Virus record (IMG/VR): IMGVR_UViG_3300042483_000604
DNA length: 64,000 nucleotides
Strand: one strand, 5' to 3'
Source of the DNA: a virus
Taxonomy: Duplodnaviria > Heunggongvirae > Uroviricota > Caudoviricetes
Both the position numbers and the translations under genes were made by a program. Under the pieces are notes generated by a model, which ran no database searches, was not told where the DNA came from, and worked only from the letters and a program-made list of their open reading frames with translations. Positions 17,271 through 58,834 of this stretch are shown one piece after another (the stretch's first letter is position 1; every line of letters begins with the position of its first letter).

Positions 17271-17847
17271 TTGTCTTTGGATGGTACAAAGCCCATTCCT
17301 CTTCTACTGGAAGCATACCATGTATTTTAAATCCTTCTAATACTTCGTGTACTTTATTTTTCCATCTAATGTGAGGAGCATTTTTATAGATTCTCATTTG
17401 CCAATCAGCCCAGTTCACCCATCCTTTTTCATTTACATGCCATCCCCATTTCTGAATATGCTCTTGAGTTAAACCCTCTACGGTATTTACTCTAGGAACT
17501 CTAACCATATCAACATCGTTAGTGCTCAACATTGTAGGAAGGTTTTGTATTAAATTGATATGAGGAATCTCATCAGCATCTATCTGAAAGATATAATCTC
17601 CTGAGCATACTTTAAAGAATTTATTCTTCCAATCGGCAAAGTGTCCTTCAAATTGACTTTCGATTAACTTAATCCAATTTGCAGAAGAAAATCTATATAA
17701 CTGATCTTGTAACTCTTGAGACATTTTAGGACTATCTGCTAGTACTACTATCTCGTCTTGTTCTCGTTTGTTTGAATGAAGGAAGTTGACTAGTCTTTTC
17801 ACTTCCTCCAATTCGTTACAAACTGTTATTGCATAACTTATTTTCAT
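17227..17847 (-). CDS. family-2 glycosyltransferase
   Basis: N-terminal SYAITVCNE GT2 signature; promoter 17849-17880. Confidence 0.55.
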   Translation of the reverse strand: MKISYAITVCNELEEVKRLVNFLHSNKREQDEIVVLADSPKMSQELQDQLYRFSSANWIKLIESQFEGHFADWKNKFFKVCSGDYIFQIDADEIPHINLIQNLPTMLSTNDVDMVRVPRVNTVEGLTQEHIQKWGWHVNEKGWVNWADWQMRIYKNAPHIRWKNKVHEVLEGFKIHGMLPVEEEWALYHPKTIDRQERQNNYYNTL

Positions 17848-17848
17848 A

Positions 17849-17880
17849 CTTAAATATATGAAATTTATTCTTTATCTGCA
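17849..17880 (-). promoter_or_regulatory. promoter motif (19-nt spacer)
   Basis: sequence. Confidence 0.4.
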
Positions 17881-18323
17881 ACTTCTACATCAAAGAAGTT
17901 GATAGCATCTAATGCTTCCATAAAGTCTTCTTTCTCAAAATGTTTGATATTTTTCATATCCATTTTAGTTGTTTGACCTTTTGGGAACTTAGCTTTTTCT
18001 TCTTCTAAGATCTCTATAGAGTTTACTGCAGCCCATCTCCAATTATCTTTTGAATTTCCATCTAGGAATACCATTCCTTTCTCAGGAAGAGTAACTGTGG
18101 AAGGGAACCATACTTTCTTATTCTCATCAACGAACATAAGGTCTTTATACAGTTCTGGTGATGCTTCTAAAGTCTTATTAACTAATTCTCCTCCTTCAAC
18201 CATTAGAGTCGAAGTTGAATATCCACAACCAAAGCAAAAGCTTGTTGTTACTTCTTCTGTTACTGCTTGTTCATAGCAAGCATTTCCTCCACAATGTGGA
18301 CAGATTGACATTTTTTCTTCCAT
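17865..18323 (-). CDS. zinc-ribbon hypothetical protein
   Basis: CPHCGG...CFGCG. Confidence 0.45.
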   Translation of the reverse strand: MEEKMSICPHCGGNACYEQAVTEEVTTSFCFGCGYSTSTLMVEGGELVNKTLEASPELYKDLMFVDENKKVWFPSTVTLPEKGMVFLDGNSKDNWRWAAVNSIEILEEEKAKFPKGQTTKMDMKNIKHFEKEDFMEALDAINFFDVEVADKE

Positions 18324-19609
18324 TATAATTTTTTCAATTTAGGTAATTCTATTTTCTTAAGCGTAGGTAGCTTTAATTCAACTTGTTTAGGGAATTCAGG
18401 AATAGACTGTGTTAGAAGATTATCCAACGTCTCTCTCATCTTATCGTAGGAGAACTCAGTTCTACTTCTATGCCCTTGTCTTTTAGCTAATTCTTTATAG
18501 GCTTTATAGTCATCAAAGACATCTTTTAATGCCTTACCTACTAGTATATCGTCTGGTGTAAACCATTGACTCTCTCTTAAGATCATCTTATCAATTGCAG
18601 CTGATGGATGTACGTTTGTAAGTTGTCCTCCTATCTGTTTTGTGAACTTATTATCTAGGAAGTCTGTATGCCCTGACCATCCTGATACTATAATTGGTTT
18701 ATTTACTAAACTAAATTCAAGTAATGGTCTTCCAAATCCTTCTCCTTTTGTTAGAGAGATCATTGCTTTTACCTTACCGTGGTTGTATAGTTCATTCATC
18801 TCACCATCAGATAGTTCTCCATGTAGAAGGTATATGTTCGGTAACTTACCCTTCACAGTCTTTCTTATTTCATCAATTTTATCCAATACAGCTTCTCTAT
18901 CCATAATAGATGTTCCTGAACCTGCCTGTACTTTTAATAAAAGGGCTGGTGGTGTTTGTTTATTTTTAAATGTTTCTAAGAATGCTTTGATAGTATATCC
19001 AATATTTTTTCTATCCTCTCCTAATACTCCTGGTAGCCAATGTCCTACTACTAAGAAACAAAACATCTCTGGAATTTCATTTAAGTCTAGTTTAACTGGT
19101 AATGCCAATGGCATATACTTCTCCACATCTGCTCCTTCAAATACTACTTCAACTCTAGTAGTTAATTCCACTACTCCGGTTACTTGTCCAGTTCTTTCGT
19201 CCTGTATATTATACTTACTTTTCTCGAAAGTCTCCTTAGCATGTTGTGCAGATACTATTACTAGGTCCATATTGTTACATCCTTGAATCCAAGAAGGATC
19301 ACAAAGTGTTGTTTCAATTCCTGCTGTTACTCCTATATTGTACTTACCGACCTTTTGGAATTCATTTGGTACAGTAATTTGTATCCAGATGTCTGGTTGT
19401 TGTGTTAGTTGTGTAATAACTCTAGAATGTAATGATTCATTCTTATGATCTTTTAAATATCCAAATCTAGTATTACCCCATCTTTGTGATAATATTTTTA
19501 CATCATACTTGTCTGTATCAATGATTGACTGTACAAAGTCTCTTGCTCTTGCTCCGTATCCTGAATATGTATCGATAGGGCAACTTACTACTAATGTAGG
19601 TTTACTCAT
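18323..19609 (-). CDS. GT-B glycosyltransferase (GT4-like)
   Basis: EGFGRPLLEFSLVNKPIIVS E-x7-E motif. Confidence 0.6.
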   Translation of the reverse strand: MSKPTLVVSCPIDTYSGYGARARDFVQSIIDTDKYDVKILSQRWGNTRFGYLKDHKNESLHSRVITQLTQQPDIWIQITVPNEFQKVGKYNIGVTAGIETTLCDPSWIQGCNNMDLVIVSAQHAKETFEKSKYNIQDERTGQVTGVVELTTRVEVVFEGADVEKYMPLALPVKLDLNEIPEMFCFLVVGHWLPGVLGEDRKNIGYTIKAFLETFKNKQTPPALLLKVQAGSGTSIMDREAVLDKIDEIRKTVKGKLPNIYLLHGELSDGEMNELYNHGKVKAMISLTKGEGFGRPLLEFSLVNKPIIVSGWSGHTDFLDNKFTKQIGGQLTNVHPSAAIDKMILRESQWFTPDDILVGKALKDVFDDYKAYKELAKRQGHRSRTEFSYDKMRETLDNLLTQSIPEFPKQVELKLPTLKKIELPKLKKL

Positions 19610-19611
19610 AA

Positions 19612-21054
19612 CTAATATATTAATTTATGTGTGATGTATTTTTTTGGTCTGTCTGTAATTTTATGTAGTTCAAATCTAGGTCTAGGGACAAACTTCTCAA
19701 ATGATTCATCCATTGCATCAATTACATTCTCACACATCTGACGTGCTGACATTCCTGATTCATCTGATGTTACCCATTCTCTTGCTAAAGCTCCTCTTCT
19801 ATCTCTTTCCTCTTTACCCATGTTATAAACTTCTTCTAAAGCTTTTGCTACGTCTTCTGGTTTACATCTATCATCGAAGATATAAGGAGTCGGAACTGAG
19901 CCAACCATTGAAATGTTTGAAGGGAATACAGGGACTGCCCATTCTCCACACTCCTTATATGTTCCTCTATGATTAGAAGGGAAGTCAGGAGTAAAGTCAA
20001 TCCACTTACCATTCTCGTCTGTAAATCTCATCTGATCTTGCATACCGCCTGTTACGTTAGCAATAATCATTTTTCCTGCCATCATAGTTTCTGTTAGAGA
20101 TAATCCCCATCCTTCGTTAGAAGTGATAAGCATTCCAACATCTGCTATATTATAAAGTAAGTTCATATGCGGAGTGTCTAATCTCTCTTGTGAGAAGAAT
20201 ACATTTACATAACTGTCATCACAGATAGCTTCTCTTACTGCATAAAGATCTGTACCATTTTCATCCACAGCTTGTGTATGCATTACAAGAGCACATTTCT
20301 TAGCTTTCTCTTCTCCGATTAAATCACAGAACATTCTATAAGAAAGAATTACATCTCCTGGAGATTTTCTTCTGATGTTCCTAGAATTAAAGAATGCTAC
20401 GAATTCGATATCTTTTCCTTGAAATAGATTCTTTTTAAACTCATCTAAGTTTTTAATATCCTCTACTGAGGTCATTGGAAAGAAGTGTTCGTGGTTTATT
20501 CCATGAGGTACGTATCTAGTTATTTTACCCTTAACAGCATCTCCTAAAACTATTTCATTAATATTTTTAGTTTGTTTTGAGATTGCCATTAATAAATCAC
20601 ATGACTCGTAGTAAGGTCTGTTGTACAAAGGTGCTGGATAGTCATCCCAAATGTTTAAGTACATCAAAGGAATTTCATTTCTAATCTCTCTTTCTATTTC
20701 AAACAACCAAGTCCAGTATCTTGGATCAGTAAAGATGAAAATAGCGTCTGGTTTTTCTTGAGCGATTAAACCTCTTATTTGCATTGCTTCACCATAGCCG
20801 TTGTTAGGGAGTACCTTTACATCAGCATCTTCTATACCGTTTAACTTATTTATCTCAGCTGATATATCAAATGCTTTACCTACTTCTGGATGATTGATGG
20901 CTGCTGCTAGATTAACCCAGTTGAAATGATGAGCTGTTCCTACAACAATCTCTCTGGCCATAGTTGCGATACCGGAATGCATCCTAATATCATCGCATAA
21001 CAAAAGAATCTTTTTACGATCCTCTTTCTTAACATAACGAAATTTTTCTTTCAT
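19612..21054 (-). CDS. GT-B glycosyltransferase (GT4-like)
   Basis: NEGWGLSLTETMMAGKMIIANVTGG motif. Confidence 0.6.
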   Translation of the reverse strand: MKEKFRYVKKEDRKKILLLCDDIRMHSGIATMAREIVVGTAHHFNWVNLAAAINHPEVGKAFDISAEINKLNGIEDADVKVLPNNGYGEAMQIRGLIAQEKPDAIFIFTDPRYWTWLFEIEREIRNEIPLMYLNIWDDYPAPLYNRPYYESCDLLMAISKQTKNINEIVLGDAVKGKITRYVPHGINHEHFFPMTSVEDIKNLDEFKKNLFQGKDIEFVAFFNSRNIRRKSPGDVILSYRMFCDLIGEEKAKKCALVMHTQAVDENGTDLYAVREAICDDSYVNVFFSQERLDTPHMNLLYNIADVGMLITSNEGWGLSLTETMMAGKMIIANVTGGMQDQMRFTDENGKWIDFTPDFPSNHRGTYKECGEWAVPVFPSNISMVGSVPTPYIFDDRCKPEDVAKALEEVYNMGKEERDRRGALAREWVTSDESGMSARQMCENVIDAMDESFEKFVPRPRFELHKITDRPKKYITHKLIY

Positions 21055-25751: not shown

Positions 25752-27694
<1,943 letters not shown>

Positions 27695-30530: not shown

Positions 30531-30562
30531 ATAAAGATACGAAAAGAGCTGCGGTTAAGCAA
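30531..30562 (-). promoter_or_regulatory. promoter motif (TATCTTTAT -7) with hairpin in spacer
   Basis: sequence. Confidence 0.45.
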
Positions 30563-30572
30563 CTCTTTTTTA

Positions 30573-30872
30573 TTAATATTCCCCGTAAAGGTCAAACTTT
30601 TCTGGCTCTGGAGGTGTCCAAGTAACTGTCTGTGTTTTAATAGCGTAGAGCTCTCCTTTTAAAGGTTCTAATCTATAAGCTCCTTTAAATTCTGTCGCTC
30701 TCATATAAGCCGATAGAGTTGGTACTAGTCCTTCAATTACTCCAGGAGGAAATCCATACCACTCTCCTTTCCAATTATCACCTGGCGGTACTCTCCTTGC
30801 AATCAACTCAAGTACTTCTTCTTGTCTTGAATTAGCTTCCATTATTGGCGTAATGTTTTTTCCATTCTGCAT
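30573..30872 (-). CDS. hypothetical protein
   Basis: ORF track; 3' overlap with the QueF-like gene. Confidence 0.4.
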   Translation of the reverse strand: MQNGKNITPIMEANSRQEEVLELIARRVPPGDNWKGEWYGFPPGVIEGLVPTLSAYMRATEFKGAYRLEPLKGELYAIKTQTVTWTPPEPEKFDLYGEY

Positions 30873-31765
30873 TTTACATCTGCAAAGAAGCTTGGGATTA
30901 ATTCCTTATGTGAAGCTCTTACTGGATTAATATCTAATCCTCCTCTACGAGTGTAAAGACAAGCTACCATTAATTCTTCTGGATTGTAAGCTTCTCTTAA
31001 GTGCATGTAAACCATTTCACAAATCTCTTCGTGGAAGTGACTTACTTGTCTGTGACTTACAATATATTTTGCTAATGATTCTAAATTAGGAACAACTCCT
31101 GCTTTAGGTTTAATGTGAATAAATACATCACCCCAGTCTGGTTGATTTGTTACTCTACAATTTGATCTTAAAAGATTTGATTGTATTTTGATTACTCCAA
31201 TTTCGAAATCATCATCTACTTCTTCTGTTTCCAATTGTGTAGCATCTGAATGATAAGAAGTAAATTCAATATTATCTAGATTAGCTATTTGATCCAATTG
31301 TGCATATCCTTTAAATGCATATGCTGGTCCAAAGTCTGAAGTAAACATCTCTACTTCTACATTTGTTTGTAACTTCTCAGATAAATCTCTCTTTACTCTA
31401 TCTTTTAAAATTGCAATACACTCTGCTGCTGTATCTCCCATTTGAGTCATATTGAATGAATTCAAATACAATTTGATAGATTTAGACTCTACGTGAAGTT
31501 TTGAATCTGCTGGATAGTAAATTTTCAACATCCCTACTACTGGAAGTCCTTTTGTAGTGATTGCTGATACTTCGTATGCATTCCAAACATCTCCTCCAAC
31601 AAATGGTAAGTTGTTATCGTCTATTCCGTATGCTTCTCTGTTTAAGTAACGAGGAATCTCTACTAATAATTCTGGATCATAAGTATCCTTATAACCTTCT
31701 CCTCCTACTTTACCAAGATGCTTTCCGGCAATCTTTACTACTTCTGCTTGATTTAATTCTGCCAT
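30842..31765 (-). CDS. queF: QueF-like protein (type II 7-cyano-7-deazaguanine reductase family)
   Basis: ESKSIKLYLNSF motif and two-domain T-fold size (~300 aa). Confidence 0.6.
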   Translation of the reverse strand: MAELNQAEVVKIAGKHLGKVGGEGYKDTYDPELLVEIPRYLNREAYGIDDNNLPFVGGDVWNAYEVSAITTKGLPVVGMLKIYYPADSKLHVESKSIKLYLNSFNMTQMGDTAAECIAILKDRVKRDLSEKLQTNVEVEMFTSDFGPAYAFKGYAQLDQIANLDNIEFTSYHSDATQLETEEVDDDFEIGVIKIQSNLLRSNCRVTNQPDWGDVFIHIKPKAGVVPNLESLAKYIVSHRQVSHFHEEICEMVYMHLREAYNPEELMVACLYTRRGGLDINPVRASHKELIPSFFADVKCRMEKTLRQ

Positions 31766-31766
31766 G

Positions 31767-32318
31767 TTATTTTATATAGTTTAATATTTGTTCAACTCTT
31801 TGTTTAGGACTTCCTGATACTGTTAAGTAATCTCCTCCTAATGCTTTAATTGCTTTTAAGTTATTCTCAAATTGCTTATCGATTGCATCTCTCCATCCTT
31901 CGTTAACACTTCTTACTCCATCATCTACAGAAGCAAATTCAATAGGGAAATAAATAAAATGTGTATATTGATCCTTAACTCTCATCCAAGTATCTAAGAT
32001 ATAATTGTATGTACTATCAGAAATGTTTTCCATATAAGTAGAATATACTACTAGGTCTAAATAACATCTGTCAAGTATTACATCTCCTGGCTGTAGTAAA
32101 GCCTCTAAATGAAAAGAAGAAATAGCAAGCTGTGTTTCAGAAGTTCCATCTTCGTTAATAGGAAATCCATATTTACCAACCGTTCTTGTTGATTCGTTTA
32201 TAAAATTAAACTCTGGAAGTCTATCTTTTAATAATTCGTATACAGTAGTCTTTCCTACTGATGATGCTCCTACTAATGCTATTCTTTTCATAACTAATTT
32301 TTTAAGAAGTCTACCCAA
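31767..32318 (-). CDS. P-loop NTPase/kinase
   Basis: Walker A GASSVGKTT. Confidence 0.5.
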   Translation of the reverse strand: MGRLLKKLVMKRIALVGASSVGKTTVYELLKDRLPEFNFINESTRTVGKYGFPINEDGTSETQLAISSFHLEALLQPGDVILDRCYLDLVVYSTYMENISDSTYNYILDTWMRVKDQYTHFIYFPIEFASVDDGVRSVNEGWRDAIDKQFENNLKAIKALGGDYLTVSGSPKQRVEQILNYIK

Positions 32319-32821
32319 AGACTTACTGATATACTATGTAATATATGAAATAATTCTCCAATCTCCAACCCTTTTATAGAAACTTTTCTACTACGGAGTA
32401 TCTCTCCTTCATCAACTCCTTCTGTTACTCTATGAATAACACATCCTGAGGATTCTAATCCTAGGTCGAAAGCTTTTTGCTGAGGATCTTTTCCTTTTAG
32501 TTCTGGATATTCAGTTATAAGTCCTGGATGTCCGTTATAGATTTCAAATCGATTACAGATATATGGAGGCATAATTCTCAACCATCCATGAAGAGTTACT
32601 AAAGGATTTCCATATTGGCCAAGTATCATTGACAATTCTTCTTCTGTAGGTTTATTCTCTACAAAGACTAAATGCTTTGATTCTAAAGCCGGATGAATCT
32701 TTCTAAGATGTTCTGGTCTTTCGTTTGTTACTATCATATCAGGCCATCTTCCTAAAAGCTTTGACACTTCTACGATCTCTGATCCTGTTTGACTAAAGAA
32801 TGCTATCCAAGGCCTACTCAT
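32294..32821 (-). CDS. formyltransferase (PurN/Fmt N-domain family)
   Basis: YNGHPGLI...SGCVIHRVTEGVDEGEIL matches the formyl_trans_N catalytic block. Confidence 0.6.
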   Translation of the reverse strand: MSRPWIAFFSQTGSEIVEVSKLLGRWPDMIVTNERPEHLRKIHPALESKHLVFVENKPTEEELSMILGQYGNPLVTLHGWLRIMPPYICNRFEIYNGHPGLITEYPELKGKDPQQKAFDLGLESSGCVIHRVTEGVDEGEILRSRKVSIKGLEIGELFHILHSISVSLWVDFLKN

Positions 32822-32999
32822 GTGATATACTTATTATTCTACTTTCATCTACAAAGATAAAATTACCTTTTACTCTTAAACTGTACGAAGGTTTTCCTGA
32901 AGTGTTATTTACTATTCCAAATACTTCAGCATCTATAATCTCATTATCGAGATTAATAATAACCATCTCTCCTACTTTATACTTTGCGTCCATTTGCAA
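32814..32999 (-). CDS. small hypothetical protein
   Basis: ORF track. Confidence 0.3.
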   Translation of the reverse strand: MQMDAKYKVGEMVIINLDNEIIDAEVFGIVNNTSGKPSYSLRVKGNFIFVDESRIISISHE

Positions 33000-33771
33000 A
33001 CCATCTGAATTTGTGAATGTTCTGAAGAATCATATTCGTATCTTCTGGTACGTAATTGATTAGTTCAAATAACTTTTGAGACTCTTTTGACCATAATCCG
33101 TCTGCTCTATACTCAATTCCTTTTATACCATGTACAACTGGATTAGAAGTATCTAAAGAATAGATCCATTTATAATCTGAGTAAAAAGAAAACTCTTGAG
33201 GTAATCCACATCCTAATAAGTGATGCTTCTTCTCTTCGTTTATTACACCGTCTCTCAACAGATCTCCTAGTAGCTTAACCCTTCCTAACATCCAGCTAAC
33301 ATACTTGTTAGGATGAGAAATAGTATTAGTATAGTACGAATAGTCGAATGAAATTGCAATCATATCTACATTTGCAATCTTATCCATATACTCATAACAA
33401 GTCTTAATTTGACTATAAGTCTTTCCTTGAACAACTCCTATTTTCTTTCCTGGAAGATTTTTATATTTGTTATTCCATTCAGTCATCTGCTTAACAGTCT
33501 TCTTTGCATCTTCTAAAGCATCTGGAACTATATACCAATCTGGCTTTAATTCTAATACCCATCCTGCAAACTTCTCTGCATCAAAAGCTTCTTCTAATTC
33601 AAATATAGAATTATCTAAAATAATTTCTCTACCTGCTTCTTTAGCTTCTTGAAACTGTTTTAAGTATTCTGGATCTTCTTCAAATAAGTGAACAAGTGCA
33701 TAGTCGTAATCAGTATGCTTTTGTACTTCTTTAAATATACTCTTCGGTGATTCGTGTGCTATCTTAATCAT
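32977..33771 (-). CDS. dpdA: DpdA-like DNA/tRNA-guanine transglycosylase homologue (TGT fold, no zinc subdomain)
   Basis: GVVQGKT (TGT GIVQGG-like), HHLLGCGLPQEF (YLMGVGxP-like), SLDTSNPVVHG (DCVLPTRxGRxG-like). Confidence 0.55.
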   Translation of the reverse strand: MIKIAHESPKSIFKEVQKHTDYDYALVHLFEEDPEYLKQFQEAKEAGREIILDNSIFELEEAFDAEKFAGWVLELKPDWYIVPDALEDAKKTVKQMTEWNNKYKNLPGKKIGVVQGKTYSQIKTCYEYMDKIANVDMIAISFDYSYYTNTISHPNKYVSWMLGRVKLLGDLLRDGVINEEKKHHLLGCGLPQEFSFYSDYKWIYSLDTSNPVVHGIKGIEYRADGLWSKESQKLFELINYVPEDTNMILQNIHKFRWFANGRKV

Positions 33772-33967
33772 TATTTTCTGGTGTTATATCTTCTAAATCT
33801 TCTACTAACCCTCCTAGCTGTGTCTGTAATGTTTCCATAACTTCTGCCAGCTGACTATCAATAGATTTCTCAACTGCTTTATAAGCCTCTGATAAAGGAA
33901 TCATATCTATACCTAAAGTATCAATAAACACTTTATGCTTTTCTAAATGGTCTAGTGCTGCTTGCAT
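33764..33967 (-). CDS. small hypothetical protein
   Basis: ORF track. Confidence 0.35.
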   Translation of the reverse strand: MQAALDHLEKHKVFIDTLGIDMIPLSEAYKAVEKSIDSQLAEVMETLQTQLGGLVEDLEDITPENND

Positions 33968-34479
33968 TATTTACTTCTATTAAATTTACTTAACTGCTCT
34001 TGAGTAAAAAACTGAGAAAGATCTGGTCGGAAGTAGTTTACATTCTTCATTACTTTTCTATCTCTTGTTCTATAAACAACGTAATACTCTCCAACTTTTT
34101 CGTAATGACACTCCTCACCTTGCTCACTCGATCTCTGAATGACAGTTGCTTTAGCGTCTTCTTCTGTTTGGCAAGCTTTTGATAGATTTGATGCTTGAAC
34201 TTCTCTATATGCTGGCCATATCTTATCCTTAAGGCCATGTAACATAGTACCGTTCCCAGTGGCAACATAAGTAATATCGCACAAAGCATCCAGAACCTCA
34301 ACGATGTCTCCTGCTTCGCAAGCTGCTCTATATTCTTCCAATTCCTCAAGGATGAAATTGTATACAAACTCCCATTCTTTTCTTTCGGGGATAGTTGGTT
34401 CATAGTTATTAGGTTTGCCCATTACGGCGTTAAATTCTTCTACTTCGTCAATAAAAGGTACTTTTGGATCTGTAATCAT
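33967..34479 (-). CDS. MazG-like nucleoside-triphosphate pyrophosphohydrolase
   Basis: EELEEYRAA...DIVEVLDALCDI all-alpha NTP-PPase pattern. Confidence 0.45.
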   Translation of the reverse strand: MITDPKVPFIDEVEEFNAVMGKPNNYEPTIPERKEWEFVYNFILEELEEYRAACEAGDIVEVLDALCDITYVATGNGTMLHGLKDKIWPAYREVQASNLSKACQTEEDAKATVIQRSSEQGEECHYEKVGEYYVVYRTRDRKVMKNVNYFRPDLSQFFTQEQLSKFNRSK

Positions 34480-34531
34480 ATCTTTTTACTTTTTTATTAA
34501 TATAAGAAATTGGCTCCGAAGAGCCAACTTA

Positions 34532-34729
34532 TTATTCAATTACTTTTAGGATTTTAGATTGGTTAACTCCTACTACTGTAAAGTTAGACTCTCCTTCAAA
34601 CTCTTTATAGATTTTTGCTTCAGCATCTGTTGCTGAAATTGCATCTACTAAATAAAGTTCTTTTACTCTTTGGATACGACCTCGGTCATTTTCGTGCTCC
34701 AATTGCACAGTTACTTGCCAATAATTCAT
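34532..34729 (-). CDS. small hypothetical protein
   Basis: ORF track. Confidence 0.4.
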   Translation of the reverse strand: MNYWQVTVQLEHENDRGRIQRVKELYLVDAISATDAEAKIYKEFEGESNFTVVGVNQSKILKVIE

Positions 34730-34741
34730 AATGTTTGGTTT

Positions 34742-35452
34742 TTATTTACAACTATATCCTTTTACAAATTCGTAAAATTCTGCTCTTGCTGATGCTTCGT
34801 CTAAGAAACATCCTGTTAATTTTGCTGTCTTCATTGAAGCACCTTGATGCTTAATACCTCTACAGCTTACACAATTATGTCCTGCTTCAATCATAACTGC
34901 TACTCCTAGATTACCTTCACAGATCTTATCTACTGCATTATGAATTGCAACTGTTAATTGTTCTTGGATAGCTCCTCTACGAGCAAATTGCTCTACAATT
35001 CTATTCAATTTAGAAAGTCCAACTACTTTTCCATCTGCTGAAGGAACATATCCGATATGAACTCTTCCTGTGATTGTTTGGTGATGATGAGAGCACATTG
35101 AAGTAATTGGAATGTTTCCTTCGAATACTATTCCGTCATACCCATCAGAAGGGAATGCTGTGATCTTAGTCATTGGTTCAAATCGACCTGCCCATAAATC
35201 ATTTACATATGCTTTTGCAACTCTCTTAGGAGTATCAGATGAATTTGGATCATTACTCCAATCACACCCTAAAGCTGAAAGGAATTGCCCAAAAGCTACT
35301 GCAGCATTCTCGATAATAGCTTGCTTTTCTTCTTCAGTTAGTCTTGCTTCTGGACCATCTATTAATTGTTTTTTTGCTAATTGTGTTGAGATTCCATTAG
35401 CGAATCCGGCTTGTACTAATTCTGTACCGTCGATAAATTTTTTATTTGACAT
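34742..35452 (-). CDS. folE: GTP cyclohydrolase I
   Basis: conserved FolE core (SMCSHHH, GYVP) and length. Confidence 0.8.
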   Translation of the reverse strand: MSNKKFIDGTELVQAGFANGISTQLAKKQLIDGPEARLTEEEKQAIIENAAVAFGQFLSALGCDWSNDPNSSDTPKRVAKAYVNDLWAGRFEPMTKITAFPSDGYDGIVFEGNIPITSMCSHHHQTITGRVHIGYVPSADGKVVGLSKLNRIVEQFARRGAIQEQLTVAIHNAVDKICEGNLGVAVMIEAGHNCVSCRGIKHQGASMKTAKLTGCFLDEASARAEFYEFVKGYSCK

Positions 35453-35492
35453 ATAAGATTGTTTTTATGGAGGTTCTACGACTCCGTTTTAT

Positions 35493-35523
35493 TTAATATA
35501 ACATTTTTTATTCTATCCTGCAA
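35493..35523 (-). promoter_or_regulatory. promoter motif (TATATTAAA -7 variant) upstream of folE
   Basis: sequence. Confidence 0.35.
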
Positions 35524-35919
35524 CTATTTTTTCAAATAATCTTGAATAGTTTCTGAATCATTTCTTTCCCAAGGGTAAACAATCCACTCTGTTCCTACTT
35601 CTTTTGAATAGAAGTCTGGGGTAAATATTGCTGTTGGTTTGTAATGAAGCGTTGCAGTATACATTCCAATAGTCTTTTTTAACGTCTCTCCTGTATCACA
35701 AATGTCATCTACAACAAGAGTATCTTTATTTATTCTACTAACGAAAGGTATATGGAGCTTGTGGGAGATCATTACTGCTGGTATTAACCCTCCTCTTTGA
35801 ATACCTGTTATCGATTTAATTTCTGCTCCTGATGAAGCTATTGTCTGACATAAATCTTCTACTAAGATATTAATATCATCCCAGCTTAAATAAACTTTGT
35901 TTCCTATTTTTAGTGCCAT
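35524..35919 (-). CDS. type I phosphoribosyltransferase (purine/xanthine-guanine PRTase-like)
   Basis: LVVDDICDTGETL PRPP-binding motif. Confidence 0.65.
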   Translation of the reverse strand: MALKIGNKVYLSWDDINILVEDLCQTIASSGAEIKSITGIQRGGLIPAVMISHKLHIPFVSRINKDTLVVDDICDTGETLKKTIGMYTATLHYKPTAIFTPDFYSKEVGTEWIVYPWERNDSETIQDYLKK

Positions 35920-35921
35920 AA

Positions 35922-36521
35922 CTAGTTAAGTTTTACTTGATAATCTACAAACGTTGCTTTCTTTGGTGCTTCATTTAAGAAATAGAAAGCAAGTGTTTTA
36001 TTTTTAGTTTTGATAATTTTATAGAAAGCTGTTGGTATAGCTGCACCTGCAGGTACTCTTTTAGGTACTTTGTCAAATACTATTTTTATTTCTACATTGA
36101 CTGGTCCTTCTGAAAAGGCTAGAAGTCTTTCATAGTCTTCTAATAATCTCCAATGAACTCTGTTCAGTCTTTCATTCTGTAGGGTACAGTTTAAGTATGA
36201 AAATGTTTTAAGTAACATTTCTCTAGTGCAGTTAAAGTCTGCCGCTGGAGCACAATGTCCTTTGTCGTAAACATTATTTACATAATCTTTTGCATCTGAA
36301 GTATGAATTGTTTTATCTGTATAAAAATCCATTCCTTTTCTAGATGCTCCAGCACCTGTACATAGTACTTGGTACTTTACCCACAATGGTTGTTCTAGTG
36401 TCTCTGAATACATCACTTCGTAGATGTCTGTCTTTACATAAACGCTATCTCTTAACTGTCCAAACCCTACTAACGGAAGTAAGAGTAATAATAAAAACTT
36501 CTTCATATTATACCTTTGCAA
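35922..36521 (-). CDS. secreted DNA/RNA non-specific endonuclease (Serratia nuclease family)
   Basis: signal peptide; DKGHCAP matches the DRGH active-site motif. Confidence 0.6.
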   Translation of the reverse strand: MQRYNMKKFLLLLLLPLVGFGQLRDSVYVKTDIYEVMYSETLEQPLWVKYQVLCTGAGASRKGMDFYTDKTIHTSDAKDYVNNVYDKGHCAPAADFNCTREMLLKTFSYLNCTLQNERLNRVHWRLLEDYERLLAFSEGPVNVEIKIVFDKVPKRVPAGAAIPTAFYKIIKTKNKTLAFYFLNEAPKKATFVDYQVKLN

Positions 36522-36807
36522 TTGTAATTCCTTCCACGTCTACTATTGGTAGTTGTGAGATAATTTCATCTCCTGATACTTCTGGATCTGTTGACTCCAG
36601 TACGTAGTTTACTAATTCTTCGATAGATACTTTATCTTTAAATCCTGTCTTACCTGAGTCGCTTGGTATTAGTACTAACTCTAATTCAAAATTTTTAGTA
36701 CCGTTAAACTGTAACTTATAGTCCCAGATGTAAAGGCCATCTGCTTTTGGATATGCTTTTGATAATTCTCTGTCTCCTGCTAAATCGATTAGATCTTTTA
36801 ATGTCAT
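36508..36807 (-). CDS. hypothetical protein
   Basis: ORF track. Confidence 0.4.
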   Translation of the reverse strand: MTLKDLIDLAGDRELSKAYPKADGLYIWDYKLQFNGTKNFELELVLIPSDSGKTGFKDKVSIEELVNYVLESTDPEVSGDEIISQLPIVDVEGITIAKV

Positions 36808-37005
36808 AACTTTATTTTTTATTTAATTGAATATTTAATTTTTCCGTCTGGTGATTGTGCTGTGATGCCTCCGTTTGTTATACTTGTTAGTTCTAGGAAG
36901 CAGCTAGTCTTAATTAAGTGCTTTACCTGTGCTGTTTGTAATTGACCCTTTCTCCATAGTGTATGAAGAGTGTACAATGTTTCTACTGTAGTTGCTGGTC
37001 TCATC

Positions 37006-37779
37006 CTACACTTCTCTTTTGTCCTCAAATGCAATGATGTGAGGTCTCCAAGTCAATCTGTAACCATTATCTCTCACCCAATCAAACATTTTTGGATATG
37101 ATTTGAATAAAGCTTCTCTTGAATCTCCAGCTGGCATGAACCATACTTTGTCTTGAGGTATGTCTAGCATTTTAATACAAGCCATAATTTCTGCTAACGC
37201 TTCTTGATCCTCTCCATCCCATACTGGCTTTAAGTGGTAATCGGAATGATACGAGATTGATTTAGAAATTGCATCGTAGTTTAATCTTAACTTGTTATGC
37301 TGTTTGATCATTCTTTCATCTGTAACGTCTCCTTGAGGTGTGAGTACGCCAACCTTAGGGACAGAATTACTGAACTTAGGGGAGATTGATAATAGATTAA
37401 TTGGGTAATCCGTTTCAAGAAAATGACTTCCTTCGGTCTCAATTGTAATGAAAATATTTCTTTCATGTGCAAAATGTGTTAATTCATTTACTAATGCTGG
37501 ATGCATTGTTGGTGATCCTCCTGTTAGCATCATCTCTGTGATGTGAGGATTCTTATCGTACATGTTGATAATGTCTTGGAAACTAATATGTCCTTTTTCA
37601 GGATGAATACTTGTGTACCAAGAATCACACCATCCACCTTCACCAAACCAACATCTGTGAGTACAGCCTGTTGTTCTGATTACTACTGTTGGATAGCCTG
37701 CTCTACTTCCTTCTGATTGTACAGCTGTATAAAGCTCTACAATTGGAAGTGTTTTGTTATAATCTTCTATTCTTTTCAT
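37006..37779 (-). CDS. queE: 7-carboxy-7-deazaguanine synthase (radical SAM)
   Basis: CTHRCWFG radical-SAM Cys motif near N-terminus, QueE length. Confidence 0.7.
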   Translation of the reverse strand: MKRIEDYNKTLPIVELYTAVQSEGSRAGYPTVVIRTTGCTHRCWFGEGGWCDSWYTSIHPEKGHISFQDIINMYDKNPHITEMMLTGGSPTMHPALVNELTHFAHERNIFITIETEGSHFLETDYPINLLSISPKFSNSVPKVGVLTPQGDVTDERMIKQHNKLRLNYDAISKSISYHSDYHLKPVWDGEDQEALAEIMACIKMLDIPQDKVWFMPAGDSREALFKSYPKMFDWVRDNGYRLTWRPHIIAFEDKREV

Positions 37780-37908
37780 CTACCTGTTATTTGTTTTATA
37801 TACATTTCTACCGCTACTACTTTCTGTCTTAGATTTAATTTAGAGTCTATTACATCCTGTAAGTATTTGTGGAACTCTTCCATTGTTAAATTAGGTTTTG
37901 CTACCATA

Positions 37909-38118
37909 CTATCCGATATCGTAATGTTCCCAAATAGCATCGATATGCTCTCTTAACTTTTCCATAGCTGCTCTAGCTTCTTTACATAGTTGAACTAATT
38001 CCGGATCTTCTTCTCCTTTATATCCATAATGCTCAACCCAATATCCAAATCCTTGATTATCAATTTCTCCGAATAATTGTTCTGCTTCTTCTTCTGATAG
38101 TTTAATTTTACTCTCCAT
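37909..38118 (-). CDS. small hypothetical protein
   Basis: ORF track. Confidence 0.35.
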   Translation of the reverse strand: MESKIKLSEEEAEQLFGEIDNQGFGYWVEHYGYKGEEDPELVQLCKEARAAMEKLREHIDAIWEHYDIG

Positions 38119-38569
38119 ATATCGCTGAGTTTTTGTTATGTTCTTTAAATTCTACACTCACTACTCTTACTCTACCTTCTGTTTCTATTTGTATAAATTC
38201 AGATACTTTATCATAGATAAATTTAGCGAATTGTTCTGCTCCTGTAGCTGGAATTATTCTTAGTTGGATTATTTCTTCGTTGTGCATCTCTAATGCTTTT
38301 GGTAAGAATGGATCATCTTTTGCAATGATGTAAGTATGGTCGAACATATGGTCCATCCATGCTTTAGGAGGCATACCATCAATAGTGTTTTTAGCTCTCT
38401 TCATTCCTCCAAAGTCCCATACCCAGTTTCTTTCGTCTAGATCTCCTTCAAAAGTAATTTTGAAAGAAATACCATAACCGTGTAGGAACCTGCAATGAGT
38501 ACCTTCTGCTCTCCATTGACGAAATACTGTTGAGTATCCATCAAAGACTTTTGTTGATTGAAATTTCAT
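38108..38569 (-). CDS. queD: 6-carboxy-5,6,7,8-tetrahydropterin synthase
   Basis: T-fold PTPS/QueD pattern (CxxxHGH..., HxxxxE). Confidence 0.7.
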   Translation of the reverse strand: MKFQSTKVFDGYSTVFRQWRAEGTHCRFLHGYGISFKITFEGDLDERNWVWDFGGMKRAKNTIDGMPPKAWMDHMFDHTYIIAKDDPFLPKALEMHNEEIIQLRIIPATGAEQFAKFIYDKVSEFIQIETEGRVRVVSVEFKEHNKNSAIYGE

Positions 38570-39145: not shown

Positions 39146-40264
39146 TTATACTTTTGGAATGTCTGTTTGATACCATCCATCTCCTTCATATACGTTCATA
39201 ACATCTTGAAAATATTTCTCATACATAGGAGCTACATTCTCTAATGAGAACTTTTCTCCATACTCTCTACAAGTCTTATAATCTATTTCTCCGTTATTGA
39301 CTTTTATAGTTGCTTTTAAATAATCGTCAAACGTTCTACATCTATAGCCAGTTACTCCGTTTATATTATTCTCTGCAAATGCTCCCCAGTCTGAAGTGAT
39401 GGTAGGTGTTCCTGATAGAAGGTTTTCTATTTGCACTCCTCCAAATGGTTCAACATATTGTGAAGGTAAGAAGCATCCTTTTGCATTCTTCATTAACTTT
39501 TTTCTCTTCTCAGTACCAGCATACCCTACAAACTCTACATGAGGAGGAAAGATTCCATCCTTATATGGTCCATCAGCGTCAATCTGTCCTGCTATCTTTA
39601 ATTTATAACCTAAGTGTTCAGTAACCTGGATTGCTATATTAACTCCTTTTCCATCAAAGACTCTTCCTAAATATAAGAAGTAGTCTTCTTTTTTATCGCT
39701 AAATTCGAAATCAGAAAGATCAAAATAGTTTGGAATTACTACTTCATAGTTTTTCATATCGCAATAATTCACTCCCATCAGTCCGTAGTATGCATGATAG
39801 ATTGCATAAGATTCAAATACCTTCCAATTGGCCCAATGACCTCCGGCGTAACCTATTCCTGGTTCAACAGTTATTAAATCTGGATGTCCATCACATACTG
39901 GACGTACTCCTGATCCCCAGAATGGAAGTATGAAGTCATTCTTCTGTTTTCTCTTTCCTATTTCCTCTATAGCATTTTTATAGAAGGTTTGATAGGCTTC
40001 ATCCTCTACATTGTACTTAAAGAATTTAGATTTATAGTCGTGAGTACCATATACCTTTTTCCATACCTTATTGGTAATAACTGTTACGTTTTCCGCATAT
40101 GGAGCGTCGCTCTCCTCATGTCCGTAATGGTATATAGTATGCCCTCTCTCTCCCATCATCTTACAGAATTTCCAAGCTTTTTGTGTATAAGCACATGCTA
40201 CAAATTCTCTATTAGTGATTGTATGAGGAAGTCCTAATACGTGGAATGTAAATTTATTATTCAT
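39146..40264 (-). CDS. GT-B fold glycosyltransferase embedded in the DNA-modification block
   Basis: EPFGGVQIENLLSGTPTITSDWGAFAE E-x7-E motif. Confidence 0.55.
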   Translation of the reverse strand: MNNKFTFHVLGLPHTITNREFVACAYTQKAWKFCKMMGERGHTIYHYGHEESDAPYAENVTVITNKVWKKVYGTHDYKSKFFKYNVEDEAYQTFYKNAIEEIGKRKQKNDFILPFWGSGVRPVCDGHPDLITVEPGIGYAGGHWANWKVFESYAIYHAYYGLMGVNYCDMKNYEVVIPNYFDLSDFEFSDKKEDYFLYLGRVFDGKGVNIAIQVTEHLGYKLKIAGQIDADGPYKDGIFPPHVEFVGYAGTEKRKKLMKNAKGCFLPSQYVEPFGGVQIENLLSGTPTITSDWGAFAENNINGVTGYRCRTFDDYLKATIKVNNGEIDYKTCREYGEKFSLENVAPMYEKYFQDVMNVYEGDGWYQTDIPKV

Positions 40265-41239: not shown

Positions 41240-42394
41240 CTAATTGCTTAAAGGTGCTTTAATTGCTGGATGTGATTGATAATTAAATAACAATACATCT
41301 TCTATTGATGAACAATATATTCCATCTCTAACATGAACTGTTGGTAGTGGATAAGGTTCTCTTGTTCTTGTTGGTGTTGGTTTGTAATATTCATTATCAA
41401 AGTCAGGTAATTCATTTGGGTTAAAAAATCTTTCCATACCCGTTTCATAATTGTTACTAAACCATATATTATACCTCTCTTCATTAGTTAAATCTCTCCC
41501 AATTTGTTCTTTGGCTTGTTCAATATGATTTGAATACAAATGAACATCTCCTAAATTACCAATCAATTGATCAGGAACCATATTTACTTCATCTGCTAAC
41601 ATCATCAATAATAATCCATAAGAAGCAATGTTGAATGGTAAACCTAAGAATGTATCTACTGAACGTTGATTCCACATTAAAGAGATTGCTCTGGTTGGTA
41701 TTCCTTTACTGTCAAAATCTTCTTTAGTGTAACAATCTGCGGTACATCTATCTTTAAATTTAATATTATATTCATTATACCTTTCTTCGTGACTCAACTC
41801 TCTTGTATAAACTTGAAATCCATAATGACAAGGTGGAAGTACCATTTGATCTAATTCTCCAACATTCCAAGCATTAACCATCATTCGTCTTGAGTCTGGA
41901 TTGTTGGTAAGGTCTGCGATAAGTCTACGGATTTGGTCTACTTCATATATATTCATCCTCATATCAAAATCAGAGTTATCTATTGAGTTCCAACCTCTCC
42001 ATTGTTTACCGTAGATTGGTCCTAAATTACCCCATCTTTCAGCAAACTTATCATTTGTTTTAATAGTTTCAATAAACTCTTCCATACCCATTGGAAAGTT
42101 TCCTTTGTATGTGTTCACATAATTTTTAAAGGCATCACCATCCCAAATATGGCAATTATTATCGACCAAATATTTTATATTAGTACTACCCTGTAAAAAC
42201 CATAACAGTTCAGTTACAATTGTTTTGAATGGCATTTTCTTAGTTGTAAGCAAAGGAAAACCATCCTTCATGTTATGTCTGATAGTATAACCGAAGATTG
42301 ATTTTGTTCCTGTACCTGTTCTATCTTTCTTATCAACACCATGTTCTAGTATTGTCTGGAGTAAGTCTGTGTATTGTTTATCTAGTTTATTCAT
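41240..42394 (-). CDS. thyA: thymidylate synthase (ThyA) family enzyme with two large insertions (TS or pyrimidine dNMP hydroxymethylase)
   Basis: RTGTGT, FLQG, DSRR..NAWN, LPPCH nucleophile, FLGLPFNIASYGLL, HLYSNH; 384 aa versus ~265 for canonical ThyA. Confidence 0.6.
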   Translation of the reverse strand: MNKLDKQYTDLLQTILEHGVDKKDRTGTGTKSIFGYTIRHNMKDGFPLLTTKKMPFKTIVTELLWFLQGSTNIKYLVDNNCHIWDGDAFKNYVNTYKGNFPMGMEEFIETIKTNDKFAERWGNLGPIYGKQWRGWNSIDNSDFDMRMNIYEVDQIRRLIADLTNNPDSRRMMVNAWNVGELDQMVLPPCHYGFQVYTRELSHEERYNEYNIKFKDRCTADCYTKEDFDSKGIPTRAISLMWNQRSVDTFLGLPFNIASYGLLLMMLADEVNMVPDQLIGNLGDVHLYSNHIEQAKEQIGRDLTNEERYNIWFSNNYETGMERFFNPNELPDFDNEYYKPTPTRTREPYPLPTVHVRDGIYCSSIEDVLLFNYQSHPAIKAPLSN

Positions 42395-52163: not shown

Positions 52164-52212
52164 GTACTACATTGGAGATGAGGGAATTGCTCTCATATTG
52201 GATAAACTTTAG

Positions 52213-52287
52213 TGTCCTATACAGGATTCGAACCTGTGACCTTCTCGTTATGAGCGAGCTGCTCTAACCGGCTGAGCTAAAAGGACA
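52213..52287 (-). tRNA. tRNA-Met/Ile2 (CAT)
   Basis: GGTTCGAATCC T-loop on minus strand, cloverleaf with CTCATAA anticodon loop. Confidence 0.7.
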
Positions 52288-52292
52288 ATTTG

Positions 52293-52366: not shown

Positions 52367-52372
52367 ATAAGC

Positions 52373-52444: not shown

Positions 52445-52498
52445 AAAATGCCCGTCTGTTCCGAGCTGTCAACCACCAGCTGTTATACAGCTGTATAG

Positions 52499-52717: not shown

Positions 52718-52723
52718 AATTTG

Positions 52724-52795: not shown

Positions 52796-52800
52796 AGTTG

Positions 52801-57943: not shown

Positions 57944-58834
57944 TTAATTGTTATGGTTATTTAATACTTTTGTTACTTCTGTTACTACATGTTCCCATGT
58001 TACTGGTCCTGTTTCGTCTGCGTAAGGAGCTGGATCAGGTCTTCCTAATTTAATAAATGCTTCTACTCTTTCAACTGATGAAGCTGATTTATAATCTGAG
58101 AACCATTCTTCAAATTTTTCAAATGTTACTGGGTCATGGTATACCATTTTAATTGGTTTGTAAGATGTATTAGTTCTTGAATAAACTTCATCAAAGTCTA
58201 ATCCTAACTCTTTACATAATACTTCTCCGTCTTGTAAGATAGTAAATTTATCTCCTTCTAAGTAAGGTGTAAAATACCCTACTCTTTCTGCTTCCCAGTT
58301 ACCCATTCTAAAAGCTGCATCATCTGCATCTCTAAATTCTTGTCTACAGTCTGGATAAATTGCATGATCACCTGCATGGATACCCATTGCAATATCACAA
58401 GTCTCTCCTGTTCTATTTGCAACTGATAAAGCTACTGCTTGAGTAATAGAAGCAAATATTTTGTTTCTGTTAGGAACAACTGTTGCTTTCATATTATCTT
58501 CTGCATAGTGACCTTCTGGTACATCTTCACCTCCTGTTACTAAAGCTGAATCTAGTAAATCAACTAATCCTTTTAATTGGATTTGGCGATACATAACTTC
58601 ATTGTAGTTTTTTCCTACTACCGTAATTGTACCTAATTGATCTTGTTCCGCTTTTTCAGAGCAACCATTAAGGTACTCTACTAATGATTGAGCTCTCTCT
58701 AACTCTACTCTGTGTTTTTGACCATAGTCAAAGCTAATAGCTGTAACTGTGTCATACTCTTTTAGACATCTAAGTAATAAGGTACTTGAGTCCATTCCTC
58801 CTGATAAGGATACTACAACATGTTTTTTAGACAT
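57944..58834 (-). CDS. queC: 7-cyano-7-deazaguanine synthase with C-terminal extension
   Basis: VVSLSGGMDSST PP-loop motif; ~70 aa longer than a typical QueC. Confidence 0.7.
   Translation of the reverse strand: MSKKHVVVSLSGGMDSSTLLLRCLKEYDTVTAISFDYGQKHRVELERAQSLVEYLNGCSEKAEQDQLGTITVVGKNYNEVMYRQIQLKGLVDLLDSALVTGGEDVPEGHYAEDNMKATVVPNRNKIFASITQAVALSVANRTGETCDIAMGIHAGDHAIYPDCRQEFRDADDAAFRMGNWEAERVGYFTPYLEGDKFTILQDGEVLCKELGLDFDEVYSRTNTSYKPIKMVYHDPVTFEKFEEWFSDYKSASSVERVEAFIKLGRPDPAPYADETGPVTWEHVVTEVTKVLNNHNN

Follow-up and report, generated by a model that had tools for sequence, protein, structure and literature searches.

A viral gene block probably encoding the published 7-(formylamino)methyl-7-deazaguanine DNA modification of Flavobacterium phage immuto, with conserved kinase and phosphohydrolase partners

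The stretch of DNA analysed here (64,000 nucleotides; hereafter the window) belongs to IMG/VR virus record IMGVR_UViG_3300042483_000604 (Caudoviricetes) and carries, from position 30,842 to 38,569 and with one further gene at a distance, a set of genes for the synthesis of a 7-deazaguanine and its insertion into DNA. A first-pass annotation made from the sequence had proposed here a pathway to the base preQ0 (FolE, QueD, QueE and a distal QueC) together with a QueF-like protein, a PurN-family formyltransferase, a zinc-less DpdA-like protein of the tRNA-guanine transglycosylase (TGT) fold, a P-loop kinase and a phosphoribosyltransferase (PRTase). Families were assigned to the open reading frames (ORFs) of the window by Pfam, NCBIfam/TIGRFAM and PHROG searches, with coordinates taken from the ORF list. 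All of the ORFs named earlier were found in place on the minus strand with the family signatures claimed for them, and the kinase, which had been given no coordinates, was located at 31767-32318. The Pfam, NCBIfam and PHROG assignments in the block were mutually consistent, and QueC was identified by NCBIfam and PHROG. A chance origin of these signatures is excluded by the E-values and by the recurrence of the gene string in 80 IMG/VR contigs. The principal genes are listed below with their protein identities to vB_FspM_immuto_2-6A (immuto), a phage of Flavobacterium.

30842..31765, minus strand: QueF, bimodular NADPH-dependent preQ0 reductase, 307 aa (Pfam QueF_N 1e-33 and QueF 3e-20; 89% identical to immuto gp069)
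31767..32318, minus strand: P-loop (deoxy)nucleoside/nucleotide-kinase-like protein, a conserved DpdA3 partner (Pfam AAA_28; 97% identical to immuto)
32294..32821, minus strand: DpdN, PurN-family formyltransferase, 175 aa (Pfam Formyl_trans_N, PF00551, 2e-13; 98% identical to immuto gp067, the founding DpdN)
32977..33771, minus strand: DpdA3, minimal zinc-less TGT/DpdA-fold predicted guanine transglycosylase, 264 aa (96.2% identical to immuto gp065)
33967..34479, minus strand: MazG/HisE-like all-alpha NTP pyrophosphohydrolase, first gene of the putative DpdA3 operon (Pfam PRA-PH, PF01503, 9e-10; PHROG 671, nucleotide pyrophosphohydrolase, 4e-28; 93% identical to immuto)
34742..35452, minus strand: FolE, GTP cyclohydrolase I, GTP to dihydroneopterin triphosphate (H2NTP) (Pfam GTP_cyclohydroI 9e-45; TIGR00063 3e-44; 98% identical to immuto gp061)
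35524..35919, minus strand: small type I purine (6-oxopurine-type) PRTase (Pfam Pribosyltran; phosphoribosyl pyrophosphate (PRPP) motif VVDDICDTGETL; 85% identical to immuto)
37006..37779, minus strand: QueE, radical-SAM 7-carboxy-7-deazaguanine synthase (Pfam Radical_SAM 3e-07; 96% identical to immuto gp057)
38108..38569, minus strand: QueD-like T-fold enzyme, carboxytetrahydropterin (CPH4) synthase (Pfam PTPS 6e-15; 88% identical to immuto gp055)
57944..58834, minus strand: QueC, preQ0 synthase, 19 kb from the main block (TIGR00364 6e-35; PP-loop SLSGGMDSS; 90% identical to immuto gp028)

Megablast of the region matched only Flavobacterium phages of the vB_FspM_immuto group (89.3% identity, 91% of the query). 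The annotated locus of immuto 2-6A holds the same genes in the same order and orientation, with pathway proteins 85–98% identical, 89% DNA identity over the block, the same flanking DNA polymerase gene (PolA, 97% identical) and an equally distal QueC. Two differences were observed, namely an endonuclease gene between PRTase and QueE that is located elsewhere in immuto, and a GT1 glycosyltransferase with a 107-aa ORF after QueD, both absent at that immuto position. Outside the block the window is collinear with immuto, yet just 34–53% of its length aligns, at 85–87% identity, and the window phage is therefore related to but distinct from immuto. The IMG/VR contig L003 is nearly identical to the window.

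Analysis of immuto 2-6A DNA by liquid chromatography with ultraviolet and tandem mass spectrometric detection, using a synthetic standard, found 345,000 fdPreQ1 per 10^6 nucleotides and no dG, where fdPreQ1 is 7-(formylamino)methyl-7-deazaguanine that replaces all G, and this DNA was resistant to restriction enzymes with G in their sites (PMC10516641). The names DpdA3, for the TGT-like protein, and DpdN, for the formyltransferase, come from Cui et al. (NAR 2023), who proposed formylation of preQ1 or dPreQ1 as the predicted activity of DpdN, reported unsuccessful tests of DpdA3 in E. coli, and mention neither a kinase nor a phosphoribosyltransferase (PMC10516641). Our literature search found no later paper on DpdA3 or DpdN. 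We conclude, with a probability of roughly 85%, that the block is the already published fdPreQ1 DNA-hypermodification system of an immuto-type Flavobacterium myovirus. The DNA chemistry and the restriction resistance were demonstrated experimentally in this 89%-identical relative, and the folds, catalytic residues and gene linkage were observed in the window itself. The first-pass annotation had joined the preQ0 pathway, QueF, the DpdA-like protein and the formyltransferase into a route to N-formylated deazaguanine in DNA, which agrees with both the gene order and the fdPreQ1 chemistry of immuto (PMC10516641). Its interpretation was right but is a rediscovery, because the immuto gene set was linked to complete replacement of G by fdPreQ1 in 2023.

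The matches to FolE, QueD, QueE and QueC bear out the preQ0 pathway, and several of these enzymes carry variant motifs. QueC scored 120.6 against the TIGR00364 cut-off of 150.3, and inspection of its sequence located the PP-loop and no C-terminal CxxCxxC cluster. Canonical QueC bears a zinc-binding Cys cluster at its C-terminus. QueE matched the QueE TIGRFAMs with E-values of 4e-15 to 2e-06, none of the matches reaching its cut-off, and its immuto orthologue is annotated as QueE; the radical-SAM cysteines are spaced CX3CX7C instead of CX3CX2C. The QueD-like protein, for which a phmmer search against PDB gave no match, reads CRFLHGY and not the signature CxxxHGH, both histidines of which bind zinc (PMC10516641), and the form CxxxHGY was found in 61/61 orthologues of related loci. 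As immuto DNA is fully modified, the QueD, QueC and QueE variants must be functional or complemented by the host. As a separate observation, deviation at metal sites is common to QueC, QueE and the zinc-less DpdA3.

QueF aligned with V. cholerae QueF (3bp1, E 1e-44), where the ESKS(I/F)KLYLNS motif, the catalytic Cys in SNC(R/L)xTNQPDWG and FHE are kept, and the window segments ESKSIKLY, SNCRVTNQPDWG and FHEE align with that enzyme. The protein has both the QueF_N and QueF domains, the QueF motif E(S/L)K(S/A)hK(L/Y)(Y/F/W) and the catalytic Cys by which family membership was judged; against TIGR03138 it scored 256, short of the 293 set as equivalog cut-off. Of the two activities previously suggested for this QueF-like protein, preQ0 reduction is upheld by the features of a true nitrile reductase (QueF motif, H-E pair and catalytic Cys), and the amidinotransferase alternative is not needed.

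The ORF at 32977-33771 had no Pfam or NCBIfam match. It is 42% identical to CPT_0056 of Campylobacter phage CP220 (E 6e-48) and is linked to gp042 of Cellulophaga phage phiST through an intermediate family member (E 6e-4). The DpdA3 family profile matched 7ui4 alone in PDB, a DNA enzyme of the TGT/DpdA TIM-barrel fold. In the profile alignment, HLLG and S-x-D-T-S-x-P lie opposite Leu236 and Asp256 of DpdA (L186 and D207 of the window protein), which are the stacking residue and the nucleophile respectively (PMC10164549). By motif alone, with no alignment, D53-x3-F57 would correspond to Asp95..Phe99, D84 to Asp130 and Q115 (Q or H) to His181 of DpdA. Across 50 diverse members of the family D53, D84, L186, G187 and D207 are invariant, and equivalents of the nucleophile, general acid/base and base-recognition aspartates, on which the DpdA-like assignment had been made to depend, are retained. 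The linked pathway genes are close at hand, with FolE, QueD, QueE and QueF at most 5 kb and QueC at most 25 kb from DpdA3. A viral-contig scan with P0194, a distant representative of DpdA3, gave no match, and the short contig that carries P0249 has a transposase but lacks deazaguanine genes.

The description of this protein as zinc-less also held, since it has two Cys only (C125 and C188) and no CXCX2C motif, and a search of its sequence for the structural zinc site CXCX2CX22H found none. That site is described as conserved in the DpdA family, and with the insertion Ins8 (~128 residues in DpdA) it forms the DNA/RNA-binding surface of DpdA and TGT (PMC10164549). The window protein ends 57 residues past the nucleophile Asp and has no such beta8/alpha8 insertion. 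In comparison to the bacterial DpdA/DpdB system (PDB 7ui4; PMC10164549), in which the DpdA chain has 413–436 aa, the 264-aa DpdA3 lacks Ins8, the CXCX2CX22H zinc site and the ParB-like DpdB ATPase partner. Replacement is complete (100%) in the DpdA3 phages examined to date, against <0.1% of G modified site-specifically by bacterial DpdA. A DpdB-like DNA-dependent ATPase was considered as a candidate for the P-loop protein and is not favoured, as its fold and motifs are those of nucleoside/nucleotide kinases.

The assignment of DpdN to the PurN family rests on the Formyl_trans_N match and on the conserved PurN catalytic motifs, in that its N-x-H-P and H-x-V..D-E-G residues align with the catalytic residues (N/H/D) of PurN structures. 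The N-terminal SQTGS loop, NGHPG and the catalytic Asp are invariant in 52 DpdN orthologues. DpdN thus shares with PurN the Formyl_trans_N fold, the N-x-H-P and Asp residues, the G-S N-terminal loop and, by prediction, a primary aminomethyl amine as acceptor, but differs in being shorter, in scoring far under the PurN cut-off (55 bits against 150), in its deazaguanine-synthesis context and in its predicted acceptor, preQ1 as base, nucleotide or DNA.

Natural DpdA3::DpdN fusion proteins of 447 aa were also found (P0179, P0180; L084:2262-3605), one of them in the order QueC, 214-aa ORF, fusion, AAA_28 kinase, QueF. Four related loci (L058, L060, L048 and L049) lack DpdN. In two of them, both on immuto-like contigs (L058:10331-11287 and L060:6123-7079), the AAA_28 kinase continues at its C-terminus into a GNAT acetyltransferase domain (318 aa in all), which suggests an N-acyl (e.g. 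acetyl) dPreQ1 modification not previously described. The DpdN slot of L048 and L049 is filled by other genes. In L049 (L049:6146-10293), the locus examined in detail, these comprise one that resembles NUMOD3 homing endonucleases and those of a HAD+GNAT protein (508 aa) and a glyoxalase-fold protein (124 aa). Next come an AAA_28 kinase and a QueF that have both diverged (28% and 40% identity respectively), the QueF with the active-site motif SNCEITNQKDTGN, and the arrangement may represent another tailoring chemistry. The fusions and the GNAT substitution therefore tie DpdN to DpdA3 and mark the DpdN position as a variable tailoring step. The fusions also lend indirect support to the predicted formylation of the 7-aminomethyl group by DpdN. 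Separately, in the QueF-less locus L092:11792-13766 a DegT aminotransferase, a GNAT protein and a staphylococcal-nuclease-like gene lie between QueE and a PRTase-FolE-MazG trio.

Taken in sequence, FolE, QueD, QueE and QueC would convert GTP to the base preQ0, which QueF would reduce to preQ1 (7-aminomethyl-7-deazaguanine). DpdA3 would then exchange guanine for the deazaguanine through a covalent Asp-deoxyribosyl intermediate, with D207 as nucleophile and D53 as acid/base, and DpdN would move a formyl group from a formyl-folate donor onto the exocyclic aminomethyl nitrogen. DNA with fdPreQ1 in place of essentially every G is the expected outcome, and it would resist restriction enzymes whose sites contain G. 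As a core this scheme has good support; predictions within it are the reactions catalysed by DpdA3 and DpdN, whether formylation precedes or follows insertion, and what DpdA3 acts on.

Four points weigh against assigning the published system to this block in full. The chemistry of the window phage is deduced from its genes by orthology to immuto; guanine exchange by DpdA3 and formylation by DpdN are predicted activities; the CxxxHGY form of QueD and the QueC without zinc cysteines mean that base synthesis could partly depend on host enzymes; and the conserved kinase and MazG-like enzyme are left without a function in the published model. A reading in which these are auxiliary metabolic genes, with preQ1 destined for tRNA queuosine and the formyltransferase an ordinary PurN of purine synthesis, would draw on the 23 tRNA genes of the window, which include all four GUN-anticodon tRNAs (Asp, Asn, His, Tyr), and on a PHROG that names the formyltransferase family 'cyanobacterial PurN'. 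We rejected this reading as very improbable, because the DNA of a near-identical phage is fully modified (PMC10516641), every tRNA-binding element of TGT is missing from DpdA3, and the formyltransferase is truncated, far below the PurN cut-off and, in relatives, fused to DpdA3 or swapped for GNAT.

The PRTase carries the acidic PRPP motif and, after it, the D-T-G that are typical of type I 6-oxopurine enzymes. Its best families were the xanthine/guanine PRT PRK09177 (2e-15, short of its cut-off) and the archaeal purine PRTs 4z1o/4trb/1vdm (1e-10), and it adjoins FolE in two DpdA3 lineages (the window type and the L088/L092 lineage). Judged from these similarities, it most likely recycles guanine freed by the exchange to GMP, and such a Gpt-like enzyme would pull the exchange forward and refill the GTP pool for FolE. 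The earlier idea that the PRTase acts on a 7-deazapurine is not favoured, as guanine salvage fits a Gpt/archaeal purine-PRT type beside FolE better. In its full form this idea would have the PRTase couple preQ1 or formyl-preQ1 to PRPP, after which the ribonucleotide would be phosphorylated, reduced by the ribonucleotide reductase of the phage and incorporated. Every immuto-like locus does contain both a PRTase and a nucleotide kinase, and the related phage immuto encodes a ribonucleotide reductase. However, the enzyme keeps the Asp of D-T-G, and in 6-oxopurine PRTs this residue contacts the purine N7, an atom missing in 7-deazapurines. The gene also stands beside FolE and not beside QueF, DpdN or the kinase in both lineages, the protein is only 34–47% identical in distant loci compared with 60–80% for its neighbours, and no PRTase is annotated around DpdA3 in CP220 (9 kb flanks) or phiST (5 kb flanks). 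As this route also leaves the signature gene DpdA3 without a role, we consider it improbable.

The kinase and the MazG-like enzyme bear on the substrate of DpdA3. The kinase has a Walker A motif, a DR(Y/C) acceptor motif, an Arg-containing lid and the nucleoside monophosphate (NMP) kinase fold, as in deoxynucleoside kinases (dNK) and dTMP kinases (TMPK). A phmmer search with it against PDB gave no match; its structure was predicted from database homologues, and the model matched nucleoside/nucleotide kinases only. The MazG-like gene, which the first-pass annotation had omitted, lies in the same putative operon as DpdA3 and gave a marginal phmmer match only (DR2231) in PDB. Overlapping or abutting ORFs run without interruption from MazG through a 67-aa ORF, DpdA3, a 61-aa ORF, DpdN, the kinase and QueF to a 99-aa ORF, between two terminator-like hairpins:

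34507..34530, minus strand: terminator-like hairpin between the FolE unit and the MazG-DpdA3-DpdN-kinase-QueF unit (consensus scan, 10-bp stem; pattern match only)
30542..30569, minus strand: terminator-like hairpin after the small ORF following QueF, putative 3' end of the DpdA3 operon (consensus scan, 11-bp stem; pattern match only)

A sigma-70 promoter scan, whose scope excludes Bacteroidetes promoters, was uninformative, with fewer sites than in shuffles (28 versus 37).

Conservation was surveyed in an immuto-like set of 80 IMG/VR loci with DpdA3 66–100% identical, whose ORFs were profile-searched; denominators are the loci with enough flank. The kinase and QueF were each present in 66/66 loci and DpdN in 62/66, and MazG, FolE and PRTase were found in 68/70, 68/70 and 70/70 respectively. 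Beyond this set, DpdA3 of CP220 is flanked by an HD-phosphohydrolase::AAA_33-kinase fusion and by an AAA_28 kinase that is 32% identical to the window kinase (E 3e-19). The order in phiST is FolE, MazG, small ORF, AAA_18 P-loop protein, DpdA3, small ORF, DNA polymerase. Chryseobacterium phage MA9V-3 has a DCD-like (dCTP deaminase-like, PF22769) gene, one ORF, an AAA_18/33 P-loop gene and a DpdA3-like gene, and BSTP12, a Bacillus phage, encodes a P-loop protein (187 aa, with a DR motif) immediately before a DpdA3-like gene and PolA. A sixth lineage (L087-L099), ordered ThyA-DpdA3-QueC-QueD-QueE ... PRTase-FolE-MazG, had no Walker-A ORF within 8 kb of DpdA3.

As an observation apart from this survey, the DpdA3-like gene of BSTP12 (L101:4896-5684; relatives BSTP5/8/10 and BSP7/19) encodes a protein of 23% identity that keeps the ILDNS, LPD, HLLG and SID motifs. 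It is variously annotated as NadR, integrase, polynucleotide kinase or hypothetical protein and stands beside Gat-QueC, QueD, FolE and PolA, which suggests an unrecognised deazaguanine DNA modification in BSTP12-type Bacillus phages.

In five of six lineages, then, DpdA3 has a small nucleotide-kinase-like gene at a distance of one to three genes, and in four of these as its immediate neighbour; the kinase-like genes belong to at least two Pfam families, namely AAA_28 (immuto-like, CP220) and AAA_18 (phiST, MA9V-3), with an unassigned P-loop and DR protein in BSTP12. Profile alignment (hhalign) of the window kinase to phiST gp041 and BSTP12 gp039 covered the P-loop region only, and these neighbours are therefore described as of the same class as the window kinase, homology to it not being demonstrated. 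A gene of NTP phosphohydrolase type lies near DpdA3 in four of the five kinase-bearing lineages (a MazG in immuto and in phiST, an HD type in CP220 and a DCD-like one in MA9V-3), and none was identified near the DpdA3-like gene of BSTP12. Kinase, phosphohydrolase and DpdA3 are combined in each of immuto, CP220 and phiST, the phages with proven 100% replacement of G (PMC10516641). A kinase/phosphohydrolase pattern of this kind typifies pre-replicative base replacement.

The published, post-replicative view, in which the substrate of DpdA3 is DNA, fits the precedent of its family, and we hold it to be somewhat better than an even bet. On comparative grounds, an alternative for DpdA3 phages, this one included, that we regard as possible, at rather less than even odds, is that DpdA3 exchanges guanine for preQ1 not in DNA but in a free deoxynucleotide or deoxynucleoside. 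A phosphohydrolase would provide dGMP or dG, with the MazG-like enzyme (in CP220 the HD phosphohydrolase) hydrolysing dGTP to dGMP, DpdN would formylate a small molecule, the dNK/TMPK-like kinase would rephosphorylate the product, the PRTase would recycle the guanine, and the phage DNA polymerase would incorporate the modified dNTP while dGTP is held low. Such a route would account for the kinases of differing families that recur beside DpdA3 and for the phosphohydrolases that accompany them, for the kinase-specific match of the structural model, for the unbroken string from MazG to QueF and for the 100% replacement of G. It is also consistent with a DpdA3 that has neither the zinc site nor Ins8, the polynucleotide-binding surface of its relatives; the acidity of the family (median net charge -8.5) is a weaker argument, as phage PolA is acidic too. 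The kinase::GNAT proteins of L058/L060, which stand in for both kinase and DpdN, and the DpdA3::DpdN fusions point in the same direction, as does the invariant S-x-x-G-S N-terminal loop of DpdN, which resembles the phosphate loop of PurN. In PurN this N-terminal loop is the phosphate loop, and the substrate is an aminomethyl-bearing ribonucleotide. Two published observations would further agree with this route, namely that DpdA3 failed to modify DNA in E. coli and that an ADG nucleoside in CP220-infected cells is cited by Cui et al. (PMC10516641).

Against exchange on a free nucleotide, all characterised TGT/DpdA enzymes act on polynucleotide and the best structural match of DpdA3 is a DNA enzyme. 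The sixth lineage (here L088-L095) has DpdA3 with no Walker-A ORF within 8 kb, homology of the phiST and BSTP12 kinases to that of the window could not be shown outside the P-loop, and the case as a whole is built on comparison. Another explanation for the kinase and the PRTase would be guanine salvage, by which an exchange at the DNA level is drawn forward.

The CP220 and phiST systems, whose products are dADG (deoxy-7-amido-7-deazaguanine) and dDG (deoxy-7-deazaguanine) respectively, share with the window the DpdA3-family transglycosylase, complete replacement of G (predicted for the window), an adjacent P-loop kinase-like gene and a nearby NTP phosphohydrolase. They differ in their end products and in lacking QueF and DpdN; phiST has a kinase of AAA_18 where that of the window is AAA_28, and CP220 has an HD domain fused to an AAA_33 kinase in place of MazG. 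The T4 hydroxymethylcytosine (hmC) pathway employs the dCTPase gp56, the dCMP hydroxymethylase gp42 and the dNMP kinase gp1, and the 2-aminoadenine (dZ) pathway of S-2L/phiVC8 employs MazZ, DatZ and PurZ. Like these, the window system would combine a dNTP phosphohydrolase, a base-changing enzyme and a nucleotide kinase near the polymerase with 100% replacement. Unlike in T4 and S-2L, the base changer here would be a transglycosylase, and not a C5-modifying or adenylosuccinate-synthetase-like enzyme.

The remaining ORFs of the block are as follows.

32814..32999, minus strand: 61-aa ORF, function unassigned, overlapping the DpdA3 stop and DpdN start (90% identical to the annotated immuto CDS gp066)
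33764..33967, minus strand: 67-aa acidic ORF between the MazG-like gene and DpdA3 (ORF list)
34532..34729, minus strand: 65-aa ORF (100% identity to gp062 of immuto, a CDS that bears the annotation 'protein of unknown function DUF4494')
35922..36521, minus strand: Endonuclease_NS, DNA/RNA non-specific endonuclease (Pfam 7e-25; hydrophobic signal-peptide-like N-terminus)

The 61-aa ORF is kept in close relatives alone, and the 67-aa ORF, which shares 8 nt with the start of DpdA3 and adjoins the stop of MazG, is weakly conserved (31–96%) in many related loci. PHROG 19572 (unknown function) was the sole match of the 65-aa ORF in our own scan, made against PHROG. The Endonuclease_NS gene has no evident role in the pathway; its immuto orthologue gp012 (82% identity) lies ~20 kb away in the immuto genome, and in about half of the related loci the gene is within the cluster.

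Several other features of the window were recorded. An array of 23 tRNA genes (52212-57157, minus strand) raises local GC to 0.41–0.45, includes the Asp, Asn, His and Tyr GUN-anticodon tRNAs that normally receive queuosine, and encloses a gene for an HNH endonuclease (53437-53943); in immuto the equivalent region carries four annotated tRNAs only. Sugar-nucleotide/glycosylation genes were noted at 9188-21054 and 39146-40264. Those shared with immuto encode GT2, two GT1-like proteins, a DegT aminotransferase, a thiamine pyrophosphate (TPP)-dependent enzyme and an NAD-dependent dehydratase/epimerase. The extra GT1 glycosyltransferase and 107-aa ORF directly after QueD had no match in the compared immuto regions and are present in L003-L005. 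The thymidylate synthase (41240-42394) is long (384 aa) and 59–60% identical to the 423-aa immuto ThyA, far below the neighbouring deazaguanine genes, and a Cpn60/GroEL-family chaperonin gene (544 aa; 25752-27386) lies just upstream of the PolA/deazaguanine region.

The question raised by this locus is by what means replacement becomes complete (100%) in DpdA3 phages, given that other DpdA enzymes attain 30% at most. More than 3,000 DpdA3 homologues occur in metagenomes (1,571 clusters at 50% identity), among which the present locus is valuable as a well-conserved and abundant test case, and the loci with GNAT in place of DpdN point to further deazaguanine derivatives not yet described. The conserved kinase and NTP-phosphohydrolase partners of DpdA3, together with its lost DNA-binding insertion, provide a testable alternative to the published post-replicative model and, if exchange does precede replication, DpdA3 would be the first TGT-fold enzyme acting on a mononucleotide.

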